64,000 nucleotides of DNA, taken from assembly GCA_900320735.1 (NCBI GenBank), contig ONTJ01000002.1, positions 3,259-67,258 on the forward strand. Reading direction: 5' to 3'. The notes below the pieces were generated by a model. That model ran no database searches, was not told the origin of the DNA, and worked only from the letters and a program-made list of their open reading frames with translations. The position numbers and the translations under genes were made by a program. How positions within the stretch are numbered: the first letter of the stretch is position 1; each line of letters starts with the position of its first letter. Positions 38,243 through 49,988 of the stretch are shown in pieces. Origin of the DNA: an uncultured Eubacteriales bacterium (GTDB lineage Bacteria > Bacillota_I > Bacilli_A > RF39 > UBA660).

Positions 38243-39169
38243 ATGATCAAAAAATTTAGTATTAAAAAGATATGTAAATATACAATGCTTTTATTGGTGG
38301 TTTTCTTATTTTATCTATTTCCTAAGAAAAATGAATATGAACTTACAAATACTGTTATTAAAAATCATAGGTTAAACTATCATGATGTTTTTTTACTTGA
38401 CAGAAATAATTATTTATCAAAAATCACTATAGAAGTTGCAGCAAAAAATGAGCTGGATTTAATTGATGAATTAATTGAAATTATGAAGGAAGATGGCAGA
38501 TATATAGATAAAATACCAAATGGTTTTAGACCATTTTTACCATCAGATTTAAAAATAAATTCAAAGAAAATAAAAAATGACATACTGATTATTAATTTTT
38601 CAAATGAATTGCTAAAAGGAAATATCCAGGATGAAGAGAGAATAGTAGAGGGACTTATATATACACTTACATCAATTAAAAATATTAAAAAGGTTAAAAT
38701 ATTAATAGATGGTGAAGAATTAAAAAAACTTCCAAAATCGGGTAAAGAATTAGATGAATATCTAAAAAGAGATTTTGGGATAAATAAAGTGTATAATATT
38801 GAAAATTTAAAAGATATAACTAAAGTAATAGTATATTATGTTTCAAAAAATAATGATAATATATATTATATTCCTGTTACAAAATATATAAATTCATCAG
38901 AAGAAAAAATAAAAATAATTATTGATGAACTTACAAGTAAAATGTCTTATAATAGTGATTTAATGAGTTATTTAAACTATAATGCAAAGCTACTTAACTA
39001 TAATTTTAATAACGACAGCATAACATTAAATTTTAACGAATATTTATTTGATAATGAAGTAAATAAAAAAGTATTAGAAGAGGTAATATATAGTATTTCA
39101 TACTCAATAAAAGATAATTATGGTGTCAGTAAAATTAATTTTTGTGTAAATAATACAGAAATTAGATAA
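38243..39169 (+). CDS. GerM-like protein with two GerMN domains and an N-terminal membrane anchor
   Basis: Two repeats of the pattern ...YF/YYV...NNYL/NIYYIPV...ELL/ELTS...LNFS/LNFN, consistent with GerMN domains. Confidence 0.4.
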   Translation: MIKKFSIKKICKYTMLLLVVFLFYLFPKKNEYELTNTVIKNHRLNYHDVFLLDRNNYLSKITIEVAAKNELDLIDELIEIMKEDGRYIDKIPNGFRPFLPSDLKINSKKIKNDILIINFSNELLKGNIQDEERIVEGLIYTLTSIKNIKKVKILIDGEELKKLPKSGKELDEYLKRDFGINKVYNIENLKDITKVIVYYVSKNNDNIYYIPVTKYINSSEEKIKIIIDELTSKMSYNSDLMSYLNYNAKLLNYNFNNDSITLNFNEYLFDNEVNKKVLEEVIYSISYSIKDNYGVSKINFCVNNTEIR

Positions 39170-39230: not shown

Positions 39231-39307
<77 letters not shown>

Positions 39308-43810: not shown

Positions 43811-44389
43811 ATGAATAAAGTGGATTATTTCAAAAAAGAATATGAATACATTAAAAATGATAAATATAAAAAATGTGCCAAGGAATTAGTGGAAATACTT
43901 CCAGATTATTTTTTTGAAGTTCCTGCATCATCAACTGGAAAGTATCATCCATTATTTTCACTTGGTGAAGGTGGTTTATTAAGACATACTAAAGCTGCGA
44001 TGAAAATTGCGAGAGATCTTTTAGAAAATGAAAGTTTAGGACATAAATTTACTAACGATGAAAAAGATTTATTACTTATTTCAATAATGATGCATGATGG
44101 TTTAAAATCTGGTTATCCTAAAGAGAAATATACGAGATTTGATCATCCAATAATTATATGTGATTATATAGAATCTAATAAGGATAAATTATCACTAGAT
44201 AAAGATGATTATAAATTTATGAGAAAAGTTATTTCTTCACATATGGGGCAATGGAATACTAGTCCATATTCAGATGTAGTTTTACCACTACCAGAAGATA
44301 AATATCAAAGATTTGTGCATTTATGTGATTATTTATCTAGTAGAAAATATATAGATATTAAATTTGAAAACAATGATATAGTTGAGTAA
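43811..44389 (+). CDS. HD-domain phosphohydrolase
   Basis: H...HD metal-binding signature (LRHTKAAM ... MMHDGLK) and a later SSHMGQW. Confidence 0.6.
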   Translation: MNKVDYFKKEYEYIKNDKYKKCAKELVEILPDYFFEVPASSTGKYHPLFSLGEGGLLRHTKAAMKIARDLLENESLGHKFTNDEKDLLLISIMMHDGLKSGYPKEKYTRFDHPIIICDYIESNKDKLSLDKDDYKFMRKVISSHMGQWNTSPYSDVVLPLPEDKYQRFVHLCDYLSSRKYIDIKFENNDIVE

Positions 44390-44403: not shown

Positions 44404-44961
44404 ATGAATAAATATTTAAAATGGTTAATTATAGTTGTACCATTTATATTAGTATTAATTTTTATAACAATTGCACTTTTATTGTCTAATAAGGAAGAAG
44501 AAGTAAAAATTATAAATAAAGAATTCGTAACTAAGGATGGTAGAGTTACTTTTTCTGCAGATGCGAAATATGTTAGCAGTGATAAGGGGGAGTATGACTT
44601 ATATTTAAATAAAGACAAAAAACAAATTGTGGGTATATTTACATATAATTTAAGTGAATATGAAGAGAAAACAGATAAAGAAATATTAGACAAACAAGTA
44701 GGAGGATTTATTGAAAGTAGAAAAAATACTACTTTATTAAAAAAGGAAAGTACCATAGAAATGGATGATAAGAAAATAACAAAAATAGAATATTCTGGTA
44801 AAACAGATAAATCATCTGAATGTGTATACATTTTTTCTGTTATTACTTTTACAAATGATCCAAATTACGTAATATATGTGAATGAAGTTATACTTAAAAG
44901 TAATTACGAAAAAAATATTTCAGAAATGATCAGTATATTAAAGAGCGCAAAACTAAATTAA
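44404..44961 (+). CDS. Membrane-anchored hypothetical protein (N-terminal TM, extracytoplasmic domain)
   Basis: Hydrophobic N-terminus WLIIVVPFILVLIFITIALLL. Confidence 0.35.
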   Translation: MNKYLKWLIIVVPFILVLIFITIALLLSNKEEEVKIINKEFVTKDGRVTFSADAKYVSSDKGEYDLYLNKDKKQIVGIFTYNLSEYEEKTDKEILDKQVGGFIESRKNTTLLKKESTIEMDDKKITKIEYSGKTDKSSECVYIFSVITFTNDPNYVIYVNEVILKSNYEKNISEMISILKSAKLN

Positions 44962-45035: not shown

Positions 45036-47039
45036 ATGAAATTTGTAAAACAACAAAATGAAAAAGATTGTGCTGTTGCATGTCTTTATAACATAATTAG
45101 ATATCATAAAGGTTATGTTGATATGGACAAGCTTAGAGTTAAGTTAAAAACAAACAAAGATGGTACAAGTGTGTATGATATTGTAAAGGTGAGTAATGAA
45201 ATTGGTTTTCAATCAGATGCTTATGAATGTGAGCTGAATAACTTGATTGACGTCAAATTACCAATAATTGCACACATAAAATTAAATAATATATATGACC
45301 ATTTTGTAATAGTTTATAAAATTGTTGATTATGATGTTTATATATTTGATCCAATACGTGGGTATATAAAACTTCAAATGGAAGAATTTGAAAATACATG
45401 AACAGGTATAATAATAACTTTTAATAAGATAAATAATATTTTAAAAGAAAAAAATAAATTTATTAGTATTTTATATTCTGGTATTAAAAAATATTATAAA
45501 ATTATTTTTTTAGTATTATTTTTATCCTTATTATCAACCATACTTTCCATTATTCACTCTCTATATTTAAGCTATTTGTTTGATAGTAAGTTTAATTATT
45601 CTAATGTGTTTATATTATTTTTAATTATATGTGTTCTAAAGATTGTATTGGATTATATTAGAAATAATCTCATATTAACACTTAACATAAAGTTTGACAG
45701 TAGTCTTACAAATAAAACGTTTAAAAATATTTTATCTCTCCCTCTTTTATATCATCATAATAGGCCAGTTGGTGATATAGTATCTAGAATAAATGATTTA
45801 TCTAGTATAAAAGAGTTCATAAATAATATTAGTTTTTCTTTTATAATTGATTTTGCGTATATATTTATCATTAATATCATATTGTTATCTATTAATAAAT
45901 TAATGTTTTTAATAACTCTTATTATGGAATTTTTGTATATGTTAATTTATTTATTATGTAGGAGGAATTTAGATAAATTGTCATATGTTGTTAAAAACAA
46001 TGCATCTATTTCAAACAGTTATTTAGTAGAAAGTATTTTGGGTATAGATACGATCAAAAATTTTTCTATTGAGGATAAGAGAAATACTGAATTTAAAAAA
46101 GTATATAAAAAATTTTTGCTAAGTAGTAAGAAAATTAGTAAATTAGTATTTAATTATAGTTTATTTCAAGAATTAGTTTGTAATCTCTCTAGTATTTTGT
46201 GTATATATATTGGTTTTATTTTGTTATACAAAAATTCTTTATCATTAAGTAAATTAATATGTTTTAATTCATTAGTTATTTCGTTATTCATATCATTTAA
46301 AAATATAATTTCTCTTGATCAATTAGTTATAGATGCTAAAAATTCTTATAAGAGAATCATTGAATTAAATAAAGTCAAAGGACATAAACATTATAGAAAG
46401 ATAAATCAAGTTAACACAATAAGATTTAATAATGTTAGTTATTCATATAATGGCGTGTATAACATTATTAATAATATAAATTTTGCTATCAAAAAGGGTG
46501 AATATGTATTTGTAAAAGGTAGTAGTGGTTCGGGTAAATCTACCATATTTAAACTACTTATGAAAATATTAGAATGTGATAATGACATGATTAAGATAAA
46601 TGATATTGATGTAAATAATATATCATATAGTGATATTACTAATAATATTTGTTTTGTTTCACAAAATGAATATATTTTTACGGATTCTATACTTAATAAT
46701 ATAAGATTATTTAAAGAAGTATCAGATGAAGATATTCAAAAAGTTATAAGGATTACTAATATTGATAACATTCTAAAAAAAAGAAACATAACATTAGACT
46801 TTCTTTTAGAAGAAAATGGCCATAATTTATCTGGAGGTGAAAGACAAAGAATAATACTTGCAAGAGCATTGCTTCAAAATAAAGAAGTATTAATACTCGA
46901 TGAAACAATGAATGAATTAGATATTGAAAGTGAAAGAAAAATTATACAAAAAATAAAAACTGAATACAATTTAACATTGATATTAATTTCACACAGATTC
47001 AGTAATAATGATTTATTTGAAAAAGTTGTGCAAGTATAA
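45036..47039 (+). pseudogene. Bacteriocin/competence-type ABC exporter with an N-terminal peptidase C39 domain, interrupted by one in-frame TGA (45399-45401) between the C39 domain and the first TM helix. It is either a disrupted gene or is expressed as two pieces.
   Basis: C39 signature QQNEKDCAVACLYNIIRYHKG plus the His region HFVIVY. The frame continues without further stops through 45402-45575 into the TMD plus ABC ATPase (GSSGSGKST, LSGGERQR, LDETMNELD). Confidence 0.7.
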
Positions 47040-47045
47040 AAAAAT

Positions 47046-47186
47046 ATGAGAAAATTAAGTGAAGAGGAAATGTTAAGTACAAAAGCAGGTGGAATATCTG
47101 CGATTACATGGGCTATAATTAGCGCAGCACTATCTTTTTTTGGAGGATTTTTAGATGGTTATACAAGACCATATAAATGTAGATAG
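47046..47186 (+). CDS. Bacteriocin-like precursor peptide 1 (46 aa). It has a double-glycine leader MRKLSEEEMLSTKAGG and the predicted mature peptide ISAITWAIISAALSFFGGFLDGYTRPYKCR.
   Basis: Unannotated small ORF 6 nt after the exporter stop. The leader fits the LSxxELxxIxGG pattern; the mature part is hydrophobic and cationic with Gly motifs. Confidence 0.55.
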   Translation: MRKLSEEEMLSTKAGGISAITWAIISAALSFFGGFLDGYTRPYKCR

Positions 47187-47195
47187 GAGGTATAT

Positions 47196-47363
47196 GTGAA
47201 GAAAATAAATGAAGATAAAATGAAATCTATAAAAGCCGGCGCTGGTATTACAGGTACCTTAATTAATTCAATTTTACGAGCTGTAAATATATTTAGTGAT
47301 GCTGGCCGTTATTTTGGTTCGTCAATTCGAAGAATTTTTTCAAAAAATTTATGTAGATTTTAG
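47196..47363 (+). CDS. Bacteriocin-like precursor peptide 2 (55 aa; GTG start after AGGAGG). Leader MKKINEDKMKSIKAG(A/G); cationic mature peptide with GxxxG (AGRYFG).
   Basis: Second small ORF 9 nt downstream of peptide 1, followed by a strong terminator at 47371-47395; an AGGAGG RBS precedes it. Confidence 0.45.
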   Translation: MKKINEDKMKSIKAGAGITGTLINSILRAVNIFSDAGRYFGSSIRRIFSKNLCRF

Positions 47364-47370
47364 TAGATAG

Positions 47371-47395
47371 GAAGCATAAGCTTCCTATTATCATA
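47371..47395 (+). terminator. Intrinsic terminator after the bacteriocin-like genes (ATAGGAAGCATAAGCTTCCTAT)
   Basis: 9-bp perfect stem followed by T-rich sequence. Confidence 0.65.
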
Positions 47396-47695: not shown

Positions 47696-48235
47696 TTGAA
47701 TAAGATAGTAGCAATTGTAGGTATGTGTGGTTCGGGTAAATCTGTTGCTACGGAAATACTTGAAAATAAATTAGGATATAAAAAAGTGTATTTTGGTGGT
47801 GTGACAATGGAAAAATTAAATGAGTCACATTTAAAGATAACACCCGAAAATGAAAAAATGATGAGAGAAAAACTAAGACGAGAATATGGAAATGGTGCAT
47901 TCGCCAAGATCTTACTTCCTCGAATAAAAGAGCTTTCTGCTAGTAATAATGTCGTACTAGACGGATTATATTCATGGGAGGAATATACACTATTAAAAGA
48001 GAAACTTGATAATATTATTTTGGTGGCTATAGTAGTGGATAAAGATATAAGATATGATAGATTATCGAAAAGAAAGATAAGACCTCTTACAAAAGAAGAA
48101 GCAATTAAAAGAGATATTTCAGAAATTGAAAATATTGCAAAGGCAGGTCCAATCGCGTATGCAGATTATTATGTTATAAATAATGATGATATAGAAAAAT
48201 ATGAAGAAAGATTATTAGAAATAGTAGGTGATTAA
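47696..48235 (+). CDS. P-loop nucleotide/nucleoside kinase-like protein (179 aa; TTG start). It may be a dephospho-CoA-kinase-like AAA-domain protein.
   Basis: Walker A VGMCGSGKS at the N-terminus and a small-kinase-like architecture; located between the T-box leader and alaS. Confidence 0.45.
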   Translation: MNKIVAIVGMCGSGKSVATEILENKLGYKKVYFGGVTMEKLNESHLKITPENEKMMREKLRREYGNGAFAKILLPRIKELSASNNVVLDGLYSWEEYTLLKEKLDNIILVAIVVDKDIRYDRLSKRKIRPLTKEEAIKRDISEIENIAKAGPIAYADYYVINNDDIEKYEERLLEIVGD

Positions 48236-48236
48236 A

Positions 48237-49988
48237 ATGAATTTGAAAGATTTATATATTAATTTTTTTGTTAGTAAAGGTCATAAGCAAATACCTTCTG
48301 CACCAGTTGTGCCAGAAAATGACCCATCAGTACTTTTTAATACTGCTGGTATGCAACCACTTATTCCATATTTAATGGGTGCTTCTCATCCATATGGAAA
48401 TAGACTATGTGATTATCAAAAGTGTATTAGAACAAATGATTTAGATGAAATTGGTGATACATACCATCATACATTTTTTGAAATGTTAGGTAACTGGTCA
48501 CTTGGAGATTATTTTAAAAAAGAAGCAATTACATGGAGTTTTGAATTTTTAACACAAGTATTAAATATACCTGTAAGTAGATTGGGTGTTACTGTATTTG
48601 CAGGAAGAGATAACATTCCAAGAGATGATGAAGCAATTGAAATTTGGAAAAGTTTAGGTATTAGTGAAGATAGAATATGTCCAACTGTTAATGATAATTT
48701 TTGGCAAGCAGGTGAAACTGGACCTTGTGGACCAGATACTGAAATGTTCTATTTTAGAAGTGATGATCCTATTCCTGAAAAATTTGATCCAGAAGATGAT
48801 AGATGGGTTGAAATATGGAATGATGTATTCATGTCATATAATATGAAAGAAGATAAAACATTAGAAGAATTACCAAATAAAAATGTTGATACTGGTATGG
48901 GTGTAGAAAGAGTAACTGCAATACTAGAAGGTGTTAATGATAATTACAAATCTTCAATTTGGAGCGATGTTATCTCTAAAATAGAAGAGATATCTAACAA
49001 AAGATATGAAGACAATGAAGTTTCAATGAGAATAATTGCAGATCATATTAGAACATCAGTATTTATTTCGGCAGATAATGCTGGTATTAAACCATCTAAT
49101 ACAGATCAAGGATATATTTTAAGAAGACTAATTAGAAGAATGGTGCGTCATGCTAAAAAATTAGGTATAGATATAGATAGTAACTGGGAATATGAATTAG
49201 CATCTATCATAATAAATAAATACAAGAAATATTATAGTGAACTTGAGGCAAATGAAAATGTAGTATATGATGTATTAAAAAATGAAAAAATTAAATTTAG
49301 TAAAACGCTTGAAAAAGGTCTAAGGGAATTTGAAAAAGTTTCAAATAAAGATATTGATGGTCAAACTGCATTTCATTTATTTGATACATATGGTTTTCCA
49401 ATAGAATTAACCATGGAACTTGCTTTAGAAAAAGGTTTAAAGGTGGATATAGAAGGTTACAAAGAAAAATTTAAGGAACACCAAGAATTATCTAGGACAG
49501 CATCTGCTGGTAAATTTAAAGGTGGACTTGCAGGTAACTCTGAAGTAGAAACTAAGTATCATACTGCAACTCATTTATTAAACGCTGCTTTGAAAATTGT
49601 AGTATCTCCTGATTGTCACCAAAAAGGTTCAAACATAACTGATGAAAGAATGAGATTTGATTTTTCATGTGATCATAAATTAACTGAAGAAGAAAAAGAA
49701 AAAACACAAGAATTAGTAAATGAATGGATAAATGAAGGTCTTGATGTTTGGGTGGAGGAAATGAAAAAAGAAGATGCTATTAATTCAGGTGCTGAATGCA
49801 TGTTTATAGAAAAATATCCTGATATAGTAACAGTTTATTTTATTGGAAATCAAGAAAAGATAGTATCTAAAGAATTATGTGGTGGGCCACATGTAAAAAA
49901 TACTAGAGAAATAGGTAAATTTAAGATTAAAAAAGAAGAAGCATCTTCTTCTGGAGTAAGAAGAATAAAAGCTATAATTGAGGAGTAG
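48237..49988 (+). CDS. alaS: Alanyl-tRNA synthetase, a short 584-aa form with catalytic, tRNA-recognition and editing domains but no C-Ala domain
   Basis: N-terminal class II core (FNTAGM, HHTFFEMLGNWSLGDYFK); editing-domain HTATHLL and CGGPHV motifs; the ORF ends right after the editing domain. Confidence 0.85.
   Translation: MNLKDLYINFFVSKGHKQIPSAPVVPENDPSVLFNTAGMQPLIPYLMGASHPYGNRLCDYQKCIRTNDLDEIGDTYHHTFFEMLGNWSLGDYFKKEAITWSFEFLTQVLNIPVSRLGVTVFAGRDNIPRDDEAIEIWKSLGISEDRICPTVNDNFWQAGETGPCGPDTEMFYFRSDDPIPEKFDPEDDRWVEIWNDVFMSYNMKEDKTLEELPNKNVDTGMGVERVTAILEGVNDNYKSSIWSDVISKIEEISNKRYEDNEVSMRIIADHIRTSVFISADNAGIKPSNTDQGYILRRLIRRMVRHAKKLGIDIDSNWEYELASIIINKYKKYYSELEANENVVYDVLKNEKIKFSKTLEKGLREFEKVSNKDIDGQTAFHLFDTYGFPIELTMELALEKGLKVDIEGYKEKFKEHQELSRTASAGKFKGGLAGNSEVETKYHTATHLLNAALKIVVSPDCHQKGSNITDERMRFDFSCDHKLTEEEKEKTQELVNEWINEGLDVWVEEMKKEDAINSGAECMFIEKYPDIVTVYFIGNQEKIVSKELCGGPHVKNTREIGKFKIKKEEASSSGVRRIKAIIEE

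Follow-up and report, generated by a model that had tools for sequence, protein, structure and literature searches.

A putative class IIb-like peptide pair and its interrupted exporter gene in an uncultured Eubacteriales bacterium

The subject of this analysis is a pair of adjacent small peptide genes, here called pep1 and pep2, in an uncultured Eubacteriales bacterium (assembly GCA_900320735.1, contig ONTJ01000002.1). They lie in a 64 kb stretch of DNA, referred to as the window, which has a GC content of approximately 25% throughout. Both are on the forward strand, directly downstream of a gene for a peptidase-containing ATP-binding cassette (ABC) exporter, or PCAT, a protein type in which a C39 peptidase, an ABC membrane domain, and an ATPase are fused. 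pep1 (47046-47186) starts with ATG 6 nucleotides (nt) past the TAA codon of the exporter gene, ends with TAG, and encodes a 46-residue precursor, MRKLSEEEMLSTKAGGISAITWAIISAALSFFGGFLDGYTRPYKCR. After a spacer of 9 nt, pep2 (47196-47363) starts with GTG, ends with TAG, and encodes a 55-residue precursor, MKKINEDKMKSIKAGAGITGTLINSILRAVNIFSDAGRYFGSSIRRIFSKNLCRF. An earlier note, made from the letters of this DNA, had placed two tandem open reading frames (ORFs) of 46 and 55 residues at exactly these positions, and both are found there.

The two genes share one terminator and differ in their translation signals. pep2 is preceded by a perfect Shine-Dalgarno sequence, AGGAGG (47185-47190, forward strand), which overlaps the pep1 stop codon, lies 5 nt before the GTG, and is kept in the related loci L008 and L009. 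No Shine-Dalgarno sequence precedes pep1 in the window, where the DNA ahead of the gene reads GTATAAAAAAATATG. L008, the nearest relative with the same synteny (its sample label was read as a sheep-rumen study), has one before pep1 and reads TAGGAGAAAGTAATG at the equivalent position; the window has therefore lost the site. Ribosome-binding sites had been assigned to both ORFs in the earlier note; that of pep2 is confirmed and that of pep1 is absent. The strong terminator said to close the pair is borne out by an intrinsic hairpin at 47366-47389 (forward strand; 10 bp stem, 4 nt loop, T-rich tail), which ends the exporter-pep1-pep2 operon. It has a folding z-score of -3.3 and is the sole terminator-like site in 4.4 kb (0.4 expected by chance). 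A hairpin with different stem bases occupies the equivalent place in L008. In this AT-rich DNA a promoter scan is uninformative, returning 38 sites where 43.5 are expected.

Relatives of the pair are numerous, and they retain its arrangement. Word-indexed searches find three relatives of pep1 and nine of pep2, and a scan with a pep2 pattern (one genome per species) recovers 13 species. A pep1 homologue is located immediately upstream of the pep2 homologue in 13/13 of these genomes, and all 13 loci have a C39-ABC exporter match upstream of pep1, the best match in L028 being to the C-terminal half only. The species records are titled uncultured Bacilli, Mollicutes, Tenericutes, Erysipelotrichaceae, and Clostridium sp. 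CAG:594, with one titled uncultured Muribaculaceae. Further metagenome contigs contain the same exporter-pep1-pep2 arrangement. A profile search with pep1 gives at least 405 clusters at 90% identity, and an exhaustive HMMER search with a pep2 profile gives at least 267 clusters at 50% identity (E≤0.001). None of the pep1 or pep2 clusters has a functional name or a Pfam domain. Among the matches listed, pep1 is exactly 46 residues long in 100 of 120 clusters.

Between the window and L008, the ratio of non-synonymous to synonymous substitution rates (dN/dS) over the whole gene is 0.22 in pep1 and 0.08 in pep2. Restricted to the predicted mature cores, dN/dS is 0.08/0.72 in pep1 and 0.02/1.33 in pep2 (dN 0.02, dS 1.33), and constraint is far stronger on the cores than on the leaders. 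These comparisons indicate purifying selection on both peptides, strongest on the cores. Short frames can arise by chance in AT-rich intergenic DNA, and both ORFs are short; pep1 lacks a ribosome-binding site and is missed by gene callers, which skip it in several contigs of the window's species. An origin of this kind is nonetheless refuted by the comparative data and retains a negligible probability, since hundreds of homologues keep the length, motifs, and synteny of the pair. With homologous pairs in many genomes and dN/dS well below 1, pep1 and pep2 are, by comparative sequence evidence, genuine genes. In P0213 and P0246, distant relatives from a representative library, pep1 and pep2 are called as a single ORF of approximately 102 residues with two double-glycine leaders in tandem. 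This ORF may be a natural fusion or reflect a missing stop codon, and it shows that the pairing of pep1 and pep2 lasts at greater divergence.

The exporter gene and the state of the locus

The exporter gene (45036-47039, forward strand) spans 667 codons behind a GGAGGG ribosome-binding site, and its frame 1 is open apart from one in-frame TGA at 45399-45401 (forward strand). This codon replaces a universally conserved Trp codon where the C39 domain ends and divides the gene into a 121-residue C39 fragment and a remainder. With Trp placed at the TGA, the translation matches the Pfam domains Peptidase_C39 (8.5e-36, residues 2-131, across the stop), ABC_membrane (3e-31), and ABC_tran (1.3e-26), fused in the manner of a PCAT. 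It also matches the NCBIfam model bacteriocin_ABC TIGR01193 at 5.8e-102, yet under the cutoff of that model. The earlier note's statement that the pair directly follows a C39/ABC exporter is thus right as to position and domains, with the correction that the exporter is not one intact ORF.

The best solved relative of the exporter is PCAT1 of Clostridium thermocellum (PDB 4RY2; E 5.4e-93, residues 4-657). The exporter resembles PCAT1 and ComA in its Cys, His, and Asp motifs, its six-helix membrane domain, and its ATPase motifs. Its DC(G/A)xxC, HFV, and DP motifs align with conserved PCAT1 counterparts and presumably correspond to the catalytic Cys, His, and Asp of that enzyme. It differs in that TGA stands at a position occupied by Trp in PCAT1 and in all close relatives, and in consisting of a peptidase fragment and a startless remnant. 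The codon at this position is TGG in L001, L022, L028, and L029. The first start codon past the TGA is a TTG at 45576, which falls late in the first predicted transmembrane helix; on our reading of the sequence, a start there would cost most of that helix. Approximately 545 codons past the TGA are still open, in DNA of 25% GC.

An assembly or sequencing error at the TGA was considered and rejected. The exact 121-residue shortened product occurs on 17 contigs from several separate assemblies and distinct strains; the six contigs listed derive from four rumen metagenome assembly sets (three WOLF17 sub-samples or assemblies, STEW19, and ERZ1029115), and strains carrying the TGA differ by 7-23 single-nucleotide polymorphisms (SNPs) per 5.1-6.4 kb compared. 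Genetic code 4, in which TGA encodes Trp, was considered because the TGA aligns with Trp and GC content is 25%, and it was likewise rejected. All other in-frame TGAs of ORFs called in the window with table 4 fall before the start codon or no more than five codons from the ORF end. Trp codons elsewhere in window genes are TGG (for example, 23/23 in one ORF). Since the genome is otherwise on the standard code, the TGA at 45399-45401 is a premature stop. It is fixed in the sampled population of the species. No close relatives of the exporter N-terminus turned up in a metagenome scan, and the 64 kb window contains no second PCAT.

Variation within the species also bears on the exporter. Its SNPs comprise 4 synonymous and 6 non-synonymous changes, against 8 and 0 in SufD and an HD-domain gene together (hypergeometric p ~0.011), which suggests relaxed constraint on the exporter. 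In strain L035, foreign DNA encoding a ParB_N protein (E 1e-18) is joined after pep1 codon 38, at the equivalent of window position 47159, and the reading frame then ends ...FLDGLIKLK and stop. The same junction is present in P0002, a separately listed ENA contig, and is probably a mobile-element insertion that truncates pep1. Because the TGA is fixed, the pep1 Shine-Dalgarno sequence is lost, an immunity gene is absent from the window, and a mobile element lies in pep1 of some strains, the locus in this species was probably disabled, or nearly so, recently, with no production or only traces.

Secretion at a low or regulated level would still be achieved if near-cognate tRNA-Trp decoded UGA as Trp at a low rate, or if another exporter elsewhere in the genome served the peptides. 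The stop falls exactly on a conserved Trp codon, so that read-through by tRNA-Trp would restore the wild-type residue; the 545 downstream codons are open, both peptide ORFs are intact in most strains, and the TGA allele is no sporadic lesion, being fixed in strains of different assembly sets. Low-level decoding of UGA as Trp is documented in Bacillus subtilis, and in pneumococci disrupted blpA alleles coexist with export by ComAB. Continued function is nevertheless unlikely, while deserving more weight than any other alternative considered here: in-frame TGA is otherwise avoided in the genome, the exporter has a SNP ratio of 4:6 against 8:0 in its neighbours, pep1 has lost its Shine-Dalgarno sequence and is broken by an insertion in some strains, and a second PCAT is absent from the window.

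The blp locus of Streptococcus pneumoniae is a known parallel for an inactivated PCAT gene beside intact peptide genes, as natural pneumococcal populations contain disrupted alleles of the blpA exporter with the peptide genes intact. The pneumococcal lesion is polymorphic, whereas that of the window is fixed in all sampled strains. Pneumococci also have ComAB as a second PCAT, immunity genes, and BlpC/BlpRH regulation, and none of these was found here.

Leaders, cores, and comparison with known bacteriocins

Each precursor consists of a predicted 15-residue leader and a core. In pep1, the leader is encoded at approximately 47046-47090 (MRKLSEEEMLSTKAG) and the core at approximately 47091-47183 (GISAITWAIISAALSFFGGFLDGYTRPYKCR); in pep2, the leader is encoded at approximately 47196-47240 (MKKINEDKMKSIKAG) and the core at approximately 47241-47360 (AGITGTLINSILRAVNIFSDAGRYFGSSIRRIFSKNLCRF). 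A wider alignment of pep2 homologues reveals the canonical double-glycine pattern L..EL..I.GG in the leader, the Gly at -1 (G15) being invariant. By homology in the family-wide alignment, both peptides would be processed after G15, at ...KAG/G... and ...KAG/AG... (the slash marks the predicted cleavage). The window site is Ala-Gly rather than Gly-Gly. The double-glycine leader that the earlier note recognised in pep1 therefore stands as to type, with its site moved one residue earlier. Residues 14-16 of pep1 homologues are most commonly AGA and AGG, and a register one residue later (after GG in pep1 and after GA in pep2) may be possible.

The L008 leaders of both peptides are almost identical (MRKLNEQEMKNISAG and MKKLNEQEMKNISAG), which argues that one peptidase recognises both. 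The TIGR01847 bacteriocin_sig model and other class II models that include the leader are weakly matched by 9/38 family members, and these weak matches are attributed mainly to the shared leader.

The pep1 core comprises 31 residues with a net charge of +2, and its first 22 residues are very hydrophobic (grand average of hydropathy 1.48). The pep2 core comprises 40 residues with a net charge of +5 and contains two amphipathic segments (hydrophobic moment ~0.5). These values agree with the hydrophobic and cationic character that had been proposed for the mature peptides. AlphaFold2 predicts a single helix for each peptide: confidently for pep1 (residues 6-40, predicted local distance difference test score, pLDDT, 84), and with low confidence for pep2 (pLDDT 63).

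The glycine motifs quoted in the earlier note belong to the GxxxG type; the pep1 motif is G34xxxG38, that of pep2 is G37xxxG41, and neither varies within the family. In a 35-sequence alignment, the invariant residues of pep1 are G34, D37, G38, R41, P42, and C45. In pep2, G15, G37, and G41 are invariant, R46 and C53 are conserved in at least 90% of sequences, and an IRR motif is among the conserved features. The single C-terminal Cys noted for each peptide is likewise a family trait: among the matches listed, it lies two residues from the C-terminus in 117/120 pep1 clusters and within the last 8 residues in 144/150 pep2 clusters. Most peptides of the family contain exactly one Cys. The conservation of these single cysteines raises the possibility of a disulfide-linked heterodimer.

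Class IIb bacteriocins are encoded by two different, adjacent peptide genes with an immunity gene in the operon; the peptides have double-glycine leaders of 15-30 residues that are cut by a dedicated ABC transporter, GxxxG occurs in all members, and activity needs both peptides (PMC2850506). The window pair resembles members such as lactococcin G, plantaricin EF/JK, and enterocin 1071 in having two small genes side by side in one operon, a double-glycine-type leader of approximately 15 residues on each peptide, an adjoining C39-peptidase ABC exporter, and cationic, predicted helical cores of 31 and 40 residues with one GxxxG each. It differs in several respects. The cores have no detectable sequence homology to any characterised member, the leaders have Ala at -2, and each peptide has one near-invariant C-terminal Cys. 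The window contains neither an immunity gene nor an HlyD-like accessory gene, and the module looks chromosomal, usually beside rpsU, and vertically inherited rather than accessory. The earlier note's proposal of a class IIb two-peptide candidate is accordingly sustained by gene adjacency, leaders, and GxxxG in both peptides, and is weakened by the missing immunity gene; the adjoining transporter gene has the conserved Cys, His, and Asp motifs and is interrupted by the fixed TGA.

The same note called the pair lactococcin-G-like. The sole Pfam or NCBIfam match of pep1 is to NF038034 lactGbeta_entB (E=0.067, residues 4-39, not confined to the leader), and 7-9 of 38 distant pep2 relatives weakly match the lactococcin G alpha and beta models. 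The pep1 match reaches 13.4 bits against a cutoff of 37, and pep2 has no Pfam or NCBIfam match; the curated cutoffs of the lactococcin G / enterocin 1071 family (NF038034, NF038035) are thus reached by neither peptide. The matches of the relatives fall far under the curated cutoffs, alongside similarly weak matches to TIGR01847, TIGR03949, ComC, and PF10439, and presumably reflect, for the most part, the leader they have in common. PDB profile searches at E≤10 returned only noise and no bacteriocin, from a file whose bacteriocin content was not checked. Membership in the lactococcin G / enterocin 1071 family is effectively refuted at the level of sequence and must be regarded as very improbable.

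Other class II models give a similar picture. Neither window peptide matches PF10439 Bacteriocin_IIc or TIGR03949 lactobin A/cerein 7B at E≤1. Distant family members with canonical Gly-Gly leaders weakly match TIGR01847, TIGR03949, and PF10439 (best E 3e-4 to 8e-3), PF10439 and TIGR03949 being matched by only 6-9/38 of these relatives; the window peptides are unmatched, and the weak matches show no core homology. A full-text literature search for strings of the core sequences found no match. Pheromones of the ComC/BlpC type go with an adjacent histidine kinase and response regulator, and neither gene was found near the module in the window or in the related loci inspected.

Genomic neighbourhood and candidate immunity genes

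The module occurs in three clades that differ in the genes around it. Clade 1 (the window, L008, L001/L018, and L022) contains, in order, an HD-domain protein, a protein of 185-199 residues with a hydrophobic N-terminus, the exporter, pep1, and pep2; conservation of the first two genes was established between the window, L001, and L022. L028 has clade-1-like peptides, and no match to either of these genes was found there. Clade 2 (L005, L014, L016, and others) contains gerM, extra genes in some loci, the exporter, pep1, pep2, a third ORF, and rpsU. Clade 3 (L029, human gut) contains the exporter, a 147-residue protein, pep1 of 44 residues, pep2, a 59-residue ORF, and rpsU.

The third ORF (L005 6153-6302; L029 6153-6332; also in L014, L016, L019, L023, L024, and L027) encodes a hydrophobic, leaderless product of 49-59 residues and overlaps the pep2 stop codon. 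It is conserved in seven clade-2 genomes, and in clades 2 and 3 it occupies the usual position of a class II immunity gene. In profile-profile comparison (hhalign), its C-terminal half aligns with the pep2 core (probability 80%, E 1.5e-5; GRIxGTxIR against GRYFGSSIRR). From this resemblance, the third ORF may encode a pep2-derived immunity protein. The window contains no homologue of it anywhere. The earlier note had suggested looking for an immunity gene among the adjacent small membrane ORFs, and none of that kind adjoins the pair in the window; no ORF lies between pep2 and the terminator, and no further ORFs with double-glycine leaders were found in the window.

The two genes upstream of the exporter are conserved in the window's clade. 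The HD-domain protein (192 residues, 43811-44389, forward strand; Pfam HD 1.3e-05) shares 70% identity with its positional counterpart in L001 and 61% with that in L022, and the loci of the other clade lack it. Any connection to the peptide system is uncertain. The 185-residue protein (44404-44961, forward strand) lies directly upstream of the exporter and is 55% identical to its L001 counterpart and 47% to that of L022. It has no Pfam or NCBIfam match, and by our reading its N-terminal hydrophobic stretch looks like a membrane anchor. Its SNPs within the species comprise 2 synonymous and 5 non-synonymous changes, unlike the neighbouring genes, and the gene is either fast-evolving or relaxed. 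It is a possible candidate for an accessory or immunity protein, with nothing in support yet. A proposed equivalence with the 147-residue protein of clade 3 was rejected, as the two are unrelated on comparison.

The window neighbours of the module are Suf genes, the HD and 185-residue proteins, a T-box, a kinase-like P-loop protein, and an alanyl-tRNA synthetase. In the window and L008, the module precedes the T-box instead of rpsU. The T-box leader (RF00230, 47483-47661, forward strand) is full-length and heads a kinase-alaS operon; its score of 78.5 bits (E 2.4e-16) is below the gathering score of 93. A 223-residue ORF from 47564 overlaps the T-box and is probably over-extended, as relatives call a gene of 179-180 residues. 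In L008, an extra 305-residue gene with no Pfam match (1511-2428) lies between pep2 and the kinase gene, and the window does not have it. The alanyl-tRNA synthetase ORF (48228-49988, forward strand) has only 586 residues, and that of L008 has 583, with tRNA-synt_2c and tRNA_SAD domains. Typical bacterial alanyl-tRNA synthetases are much longer, and the window enzyme seems to be missing a C-terminal part.

Upstream, a cluster resembling spoIIIAH, gerE, and gerM (37392-39169, forward strand) corresponds in synteny to the place that the peptide module occupies in clade-2 relatives and suggests a spore-forming, genome-reduced lineage of Bacilli. The sole tRNA gene in the window, tRNA-Arg(TCT), lies at 39231-39307 (forward strand). 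Just upstream of rpsU, clade-2 relatives carry a short conserved ORF-like element, …KLSFFV.N..KYIVI..NGCYNY (L017 6306-6395; L019 2806-2886; L021 4271-4360; L024 6323-6403), which could be a small peptide or an undescribed leader. An Rfam scan of the equivalent spacer between pep2 and rpsU in L005 gave no match. A plasmid tblastn search and a scan of viral contigs returned no matches to the module, and there is consequently no sign of plasmid or phage carriage.

Function of the peptide pair

A class IIb-like two-peptide bacteriocin is the best-supported reading of the pair, judged from gene order, leaders, and motifs. In the ancestral system, the cysteine-peptidase domain of the exporter would recognise the 15-residue double-glycine-type leader (Ala-Gly in the window) on each precursor and remove it during export of the peptide. 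This would release a 31-residue, very hydrophobic helix with a cationic tail from pep1 and a 40-residue, amphipathic, cationic peptide from pep2. The two peptides would pack through their invariant GxxxG motifs in the target membrane, where the C-terminal cysteines may sit side by side, and would act jointly as a class IIb-like bacteriocin. Conservation of the pair across many genomes strengthens this case, and the third ORF in the immunity position of other clades fits a toxin-immunity logic. Overall, we lean towards the view that the pair represents an undescribed, widespread class IIb-like family whose copy in this species is probably non-functional, and we hold it with modest confidence.

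Several observations weigh against this view. The peptides have no significant similarity to any characterised bacteriocin in Pfam, NCBIfam, or the PDB sequences, and Ala at leader position -2 is non-canonical. The window's clade has no immunity candidate of the kind that a functional bacteriocin locus normally needs. Outside the window's lineage, the module is just upstream of rpsU in most recovered loci, 11/13 species genomes among them, and the peptides are more conserved (~50%) than the exporter (~30%). The module looks vertically inherited and core-like, which is unusual for bacteriocins, as these are typically accessory and fast-evolving. Loss of function may also be incomplete: the peptide ORFs are intact and nearly invariant among strains, the approximately 545 codons past the TGA are open, and UGA read as Trp at a low level could yield full-length exporter.

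Some of these features would also be expected of a pair that is not antimicrobial, such as a secreted or membrane-inserted physiological factor in cell-cell signalling or linked to sporulation, a role that would account for core-like retention in genome-reduced, spore-forming gut Bacilli. Its place beside rpsU and the sporulation genes gerM, spoIIIAH, and yqfD is kept across deep divergence, the length and sequence of the peptides are unusually conserved (100/120 listed pep1 clusters of exactly 46 residues), the exporter is less conserved than the peptides, and an immunity gene is missing from several clades. Pheromones, ComC and BlpC among them, are also exported by PCATs. We consider a physiological role improbable, somewhat more so than continued secretion at the window locus. 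The loci inspected contain no histidine kinase or response regulator near the module; GG-type pheromones are short and soluble, unlike these long, hydrophobic, helical cores with their GxxxG motifs; the leaderless, hydrophobic third ORF of other clades suits a toxin and its immunity protein; and the locus is dispensable and decaying in the window's species.

A more speculative model, to which we give slightly less credence again, treats the module as an ancient, vertically inherited part of genome-reduced, spore-forming gut Bacilli, mostly found beside rpsU. In it, pep1 and pep2 would form a secreted heterodimer linked through their single C-terminal cysteines, the third ORF of other clades would be a leaderless, membrane-anchored decoy of the pep2 core for self-protection, and the role could be physiological or directed at kin instead of ordinary warfare between strains. 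To our knowledge, a Cys-linked heterodimer architecture has not been described for class II bacteriocins.

On the favoured class IIb-like reading, the family is new, the kind of system is known, and the window copy is probably a remnant. The analysis thus delimits a large family, of hundreds of clusters, in which paired double-glycine-leader peptides go with their exporter and for which Pfam, NCBIfam, and the literature give no match. Its hosts are uncultured low-GC Bacilli from rumen, rabbit, and human gut metagenomes, which cannot yet be grown; their ecology can be approached in few ways, and predicted secreted effectors are one of them. At their length the peptides can be synthesised, which opens antimicrobial activity, the contribution of the conserved cysteines, and the site of processing to direct test. 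In genome annotation, the exporter deserves a flag as interrupted. The window's species offers a natural example in which a premature stop in an exporter is fixed in the population and the peptide genes are still intact, and such a case is useful for understanding how loci of this kind decay or persist through stop-codon read-through.

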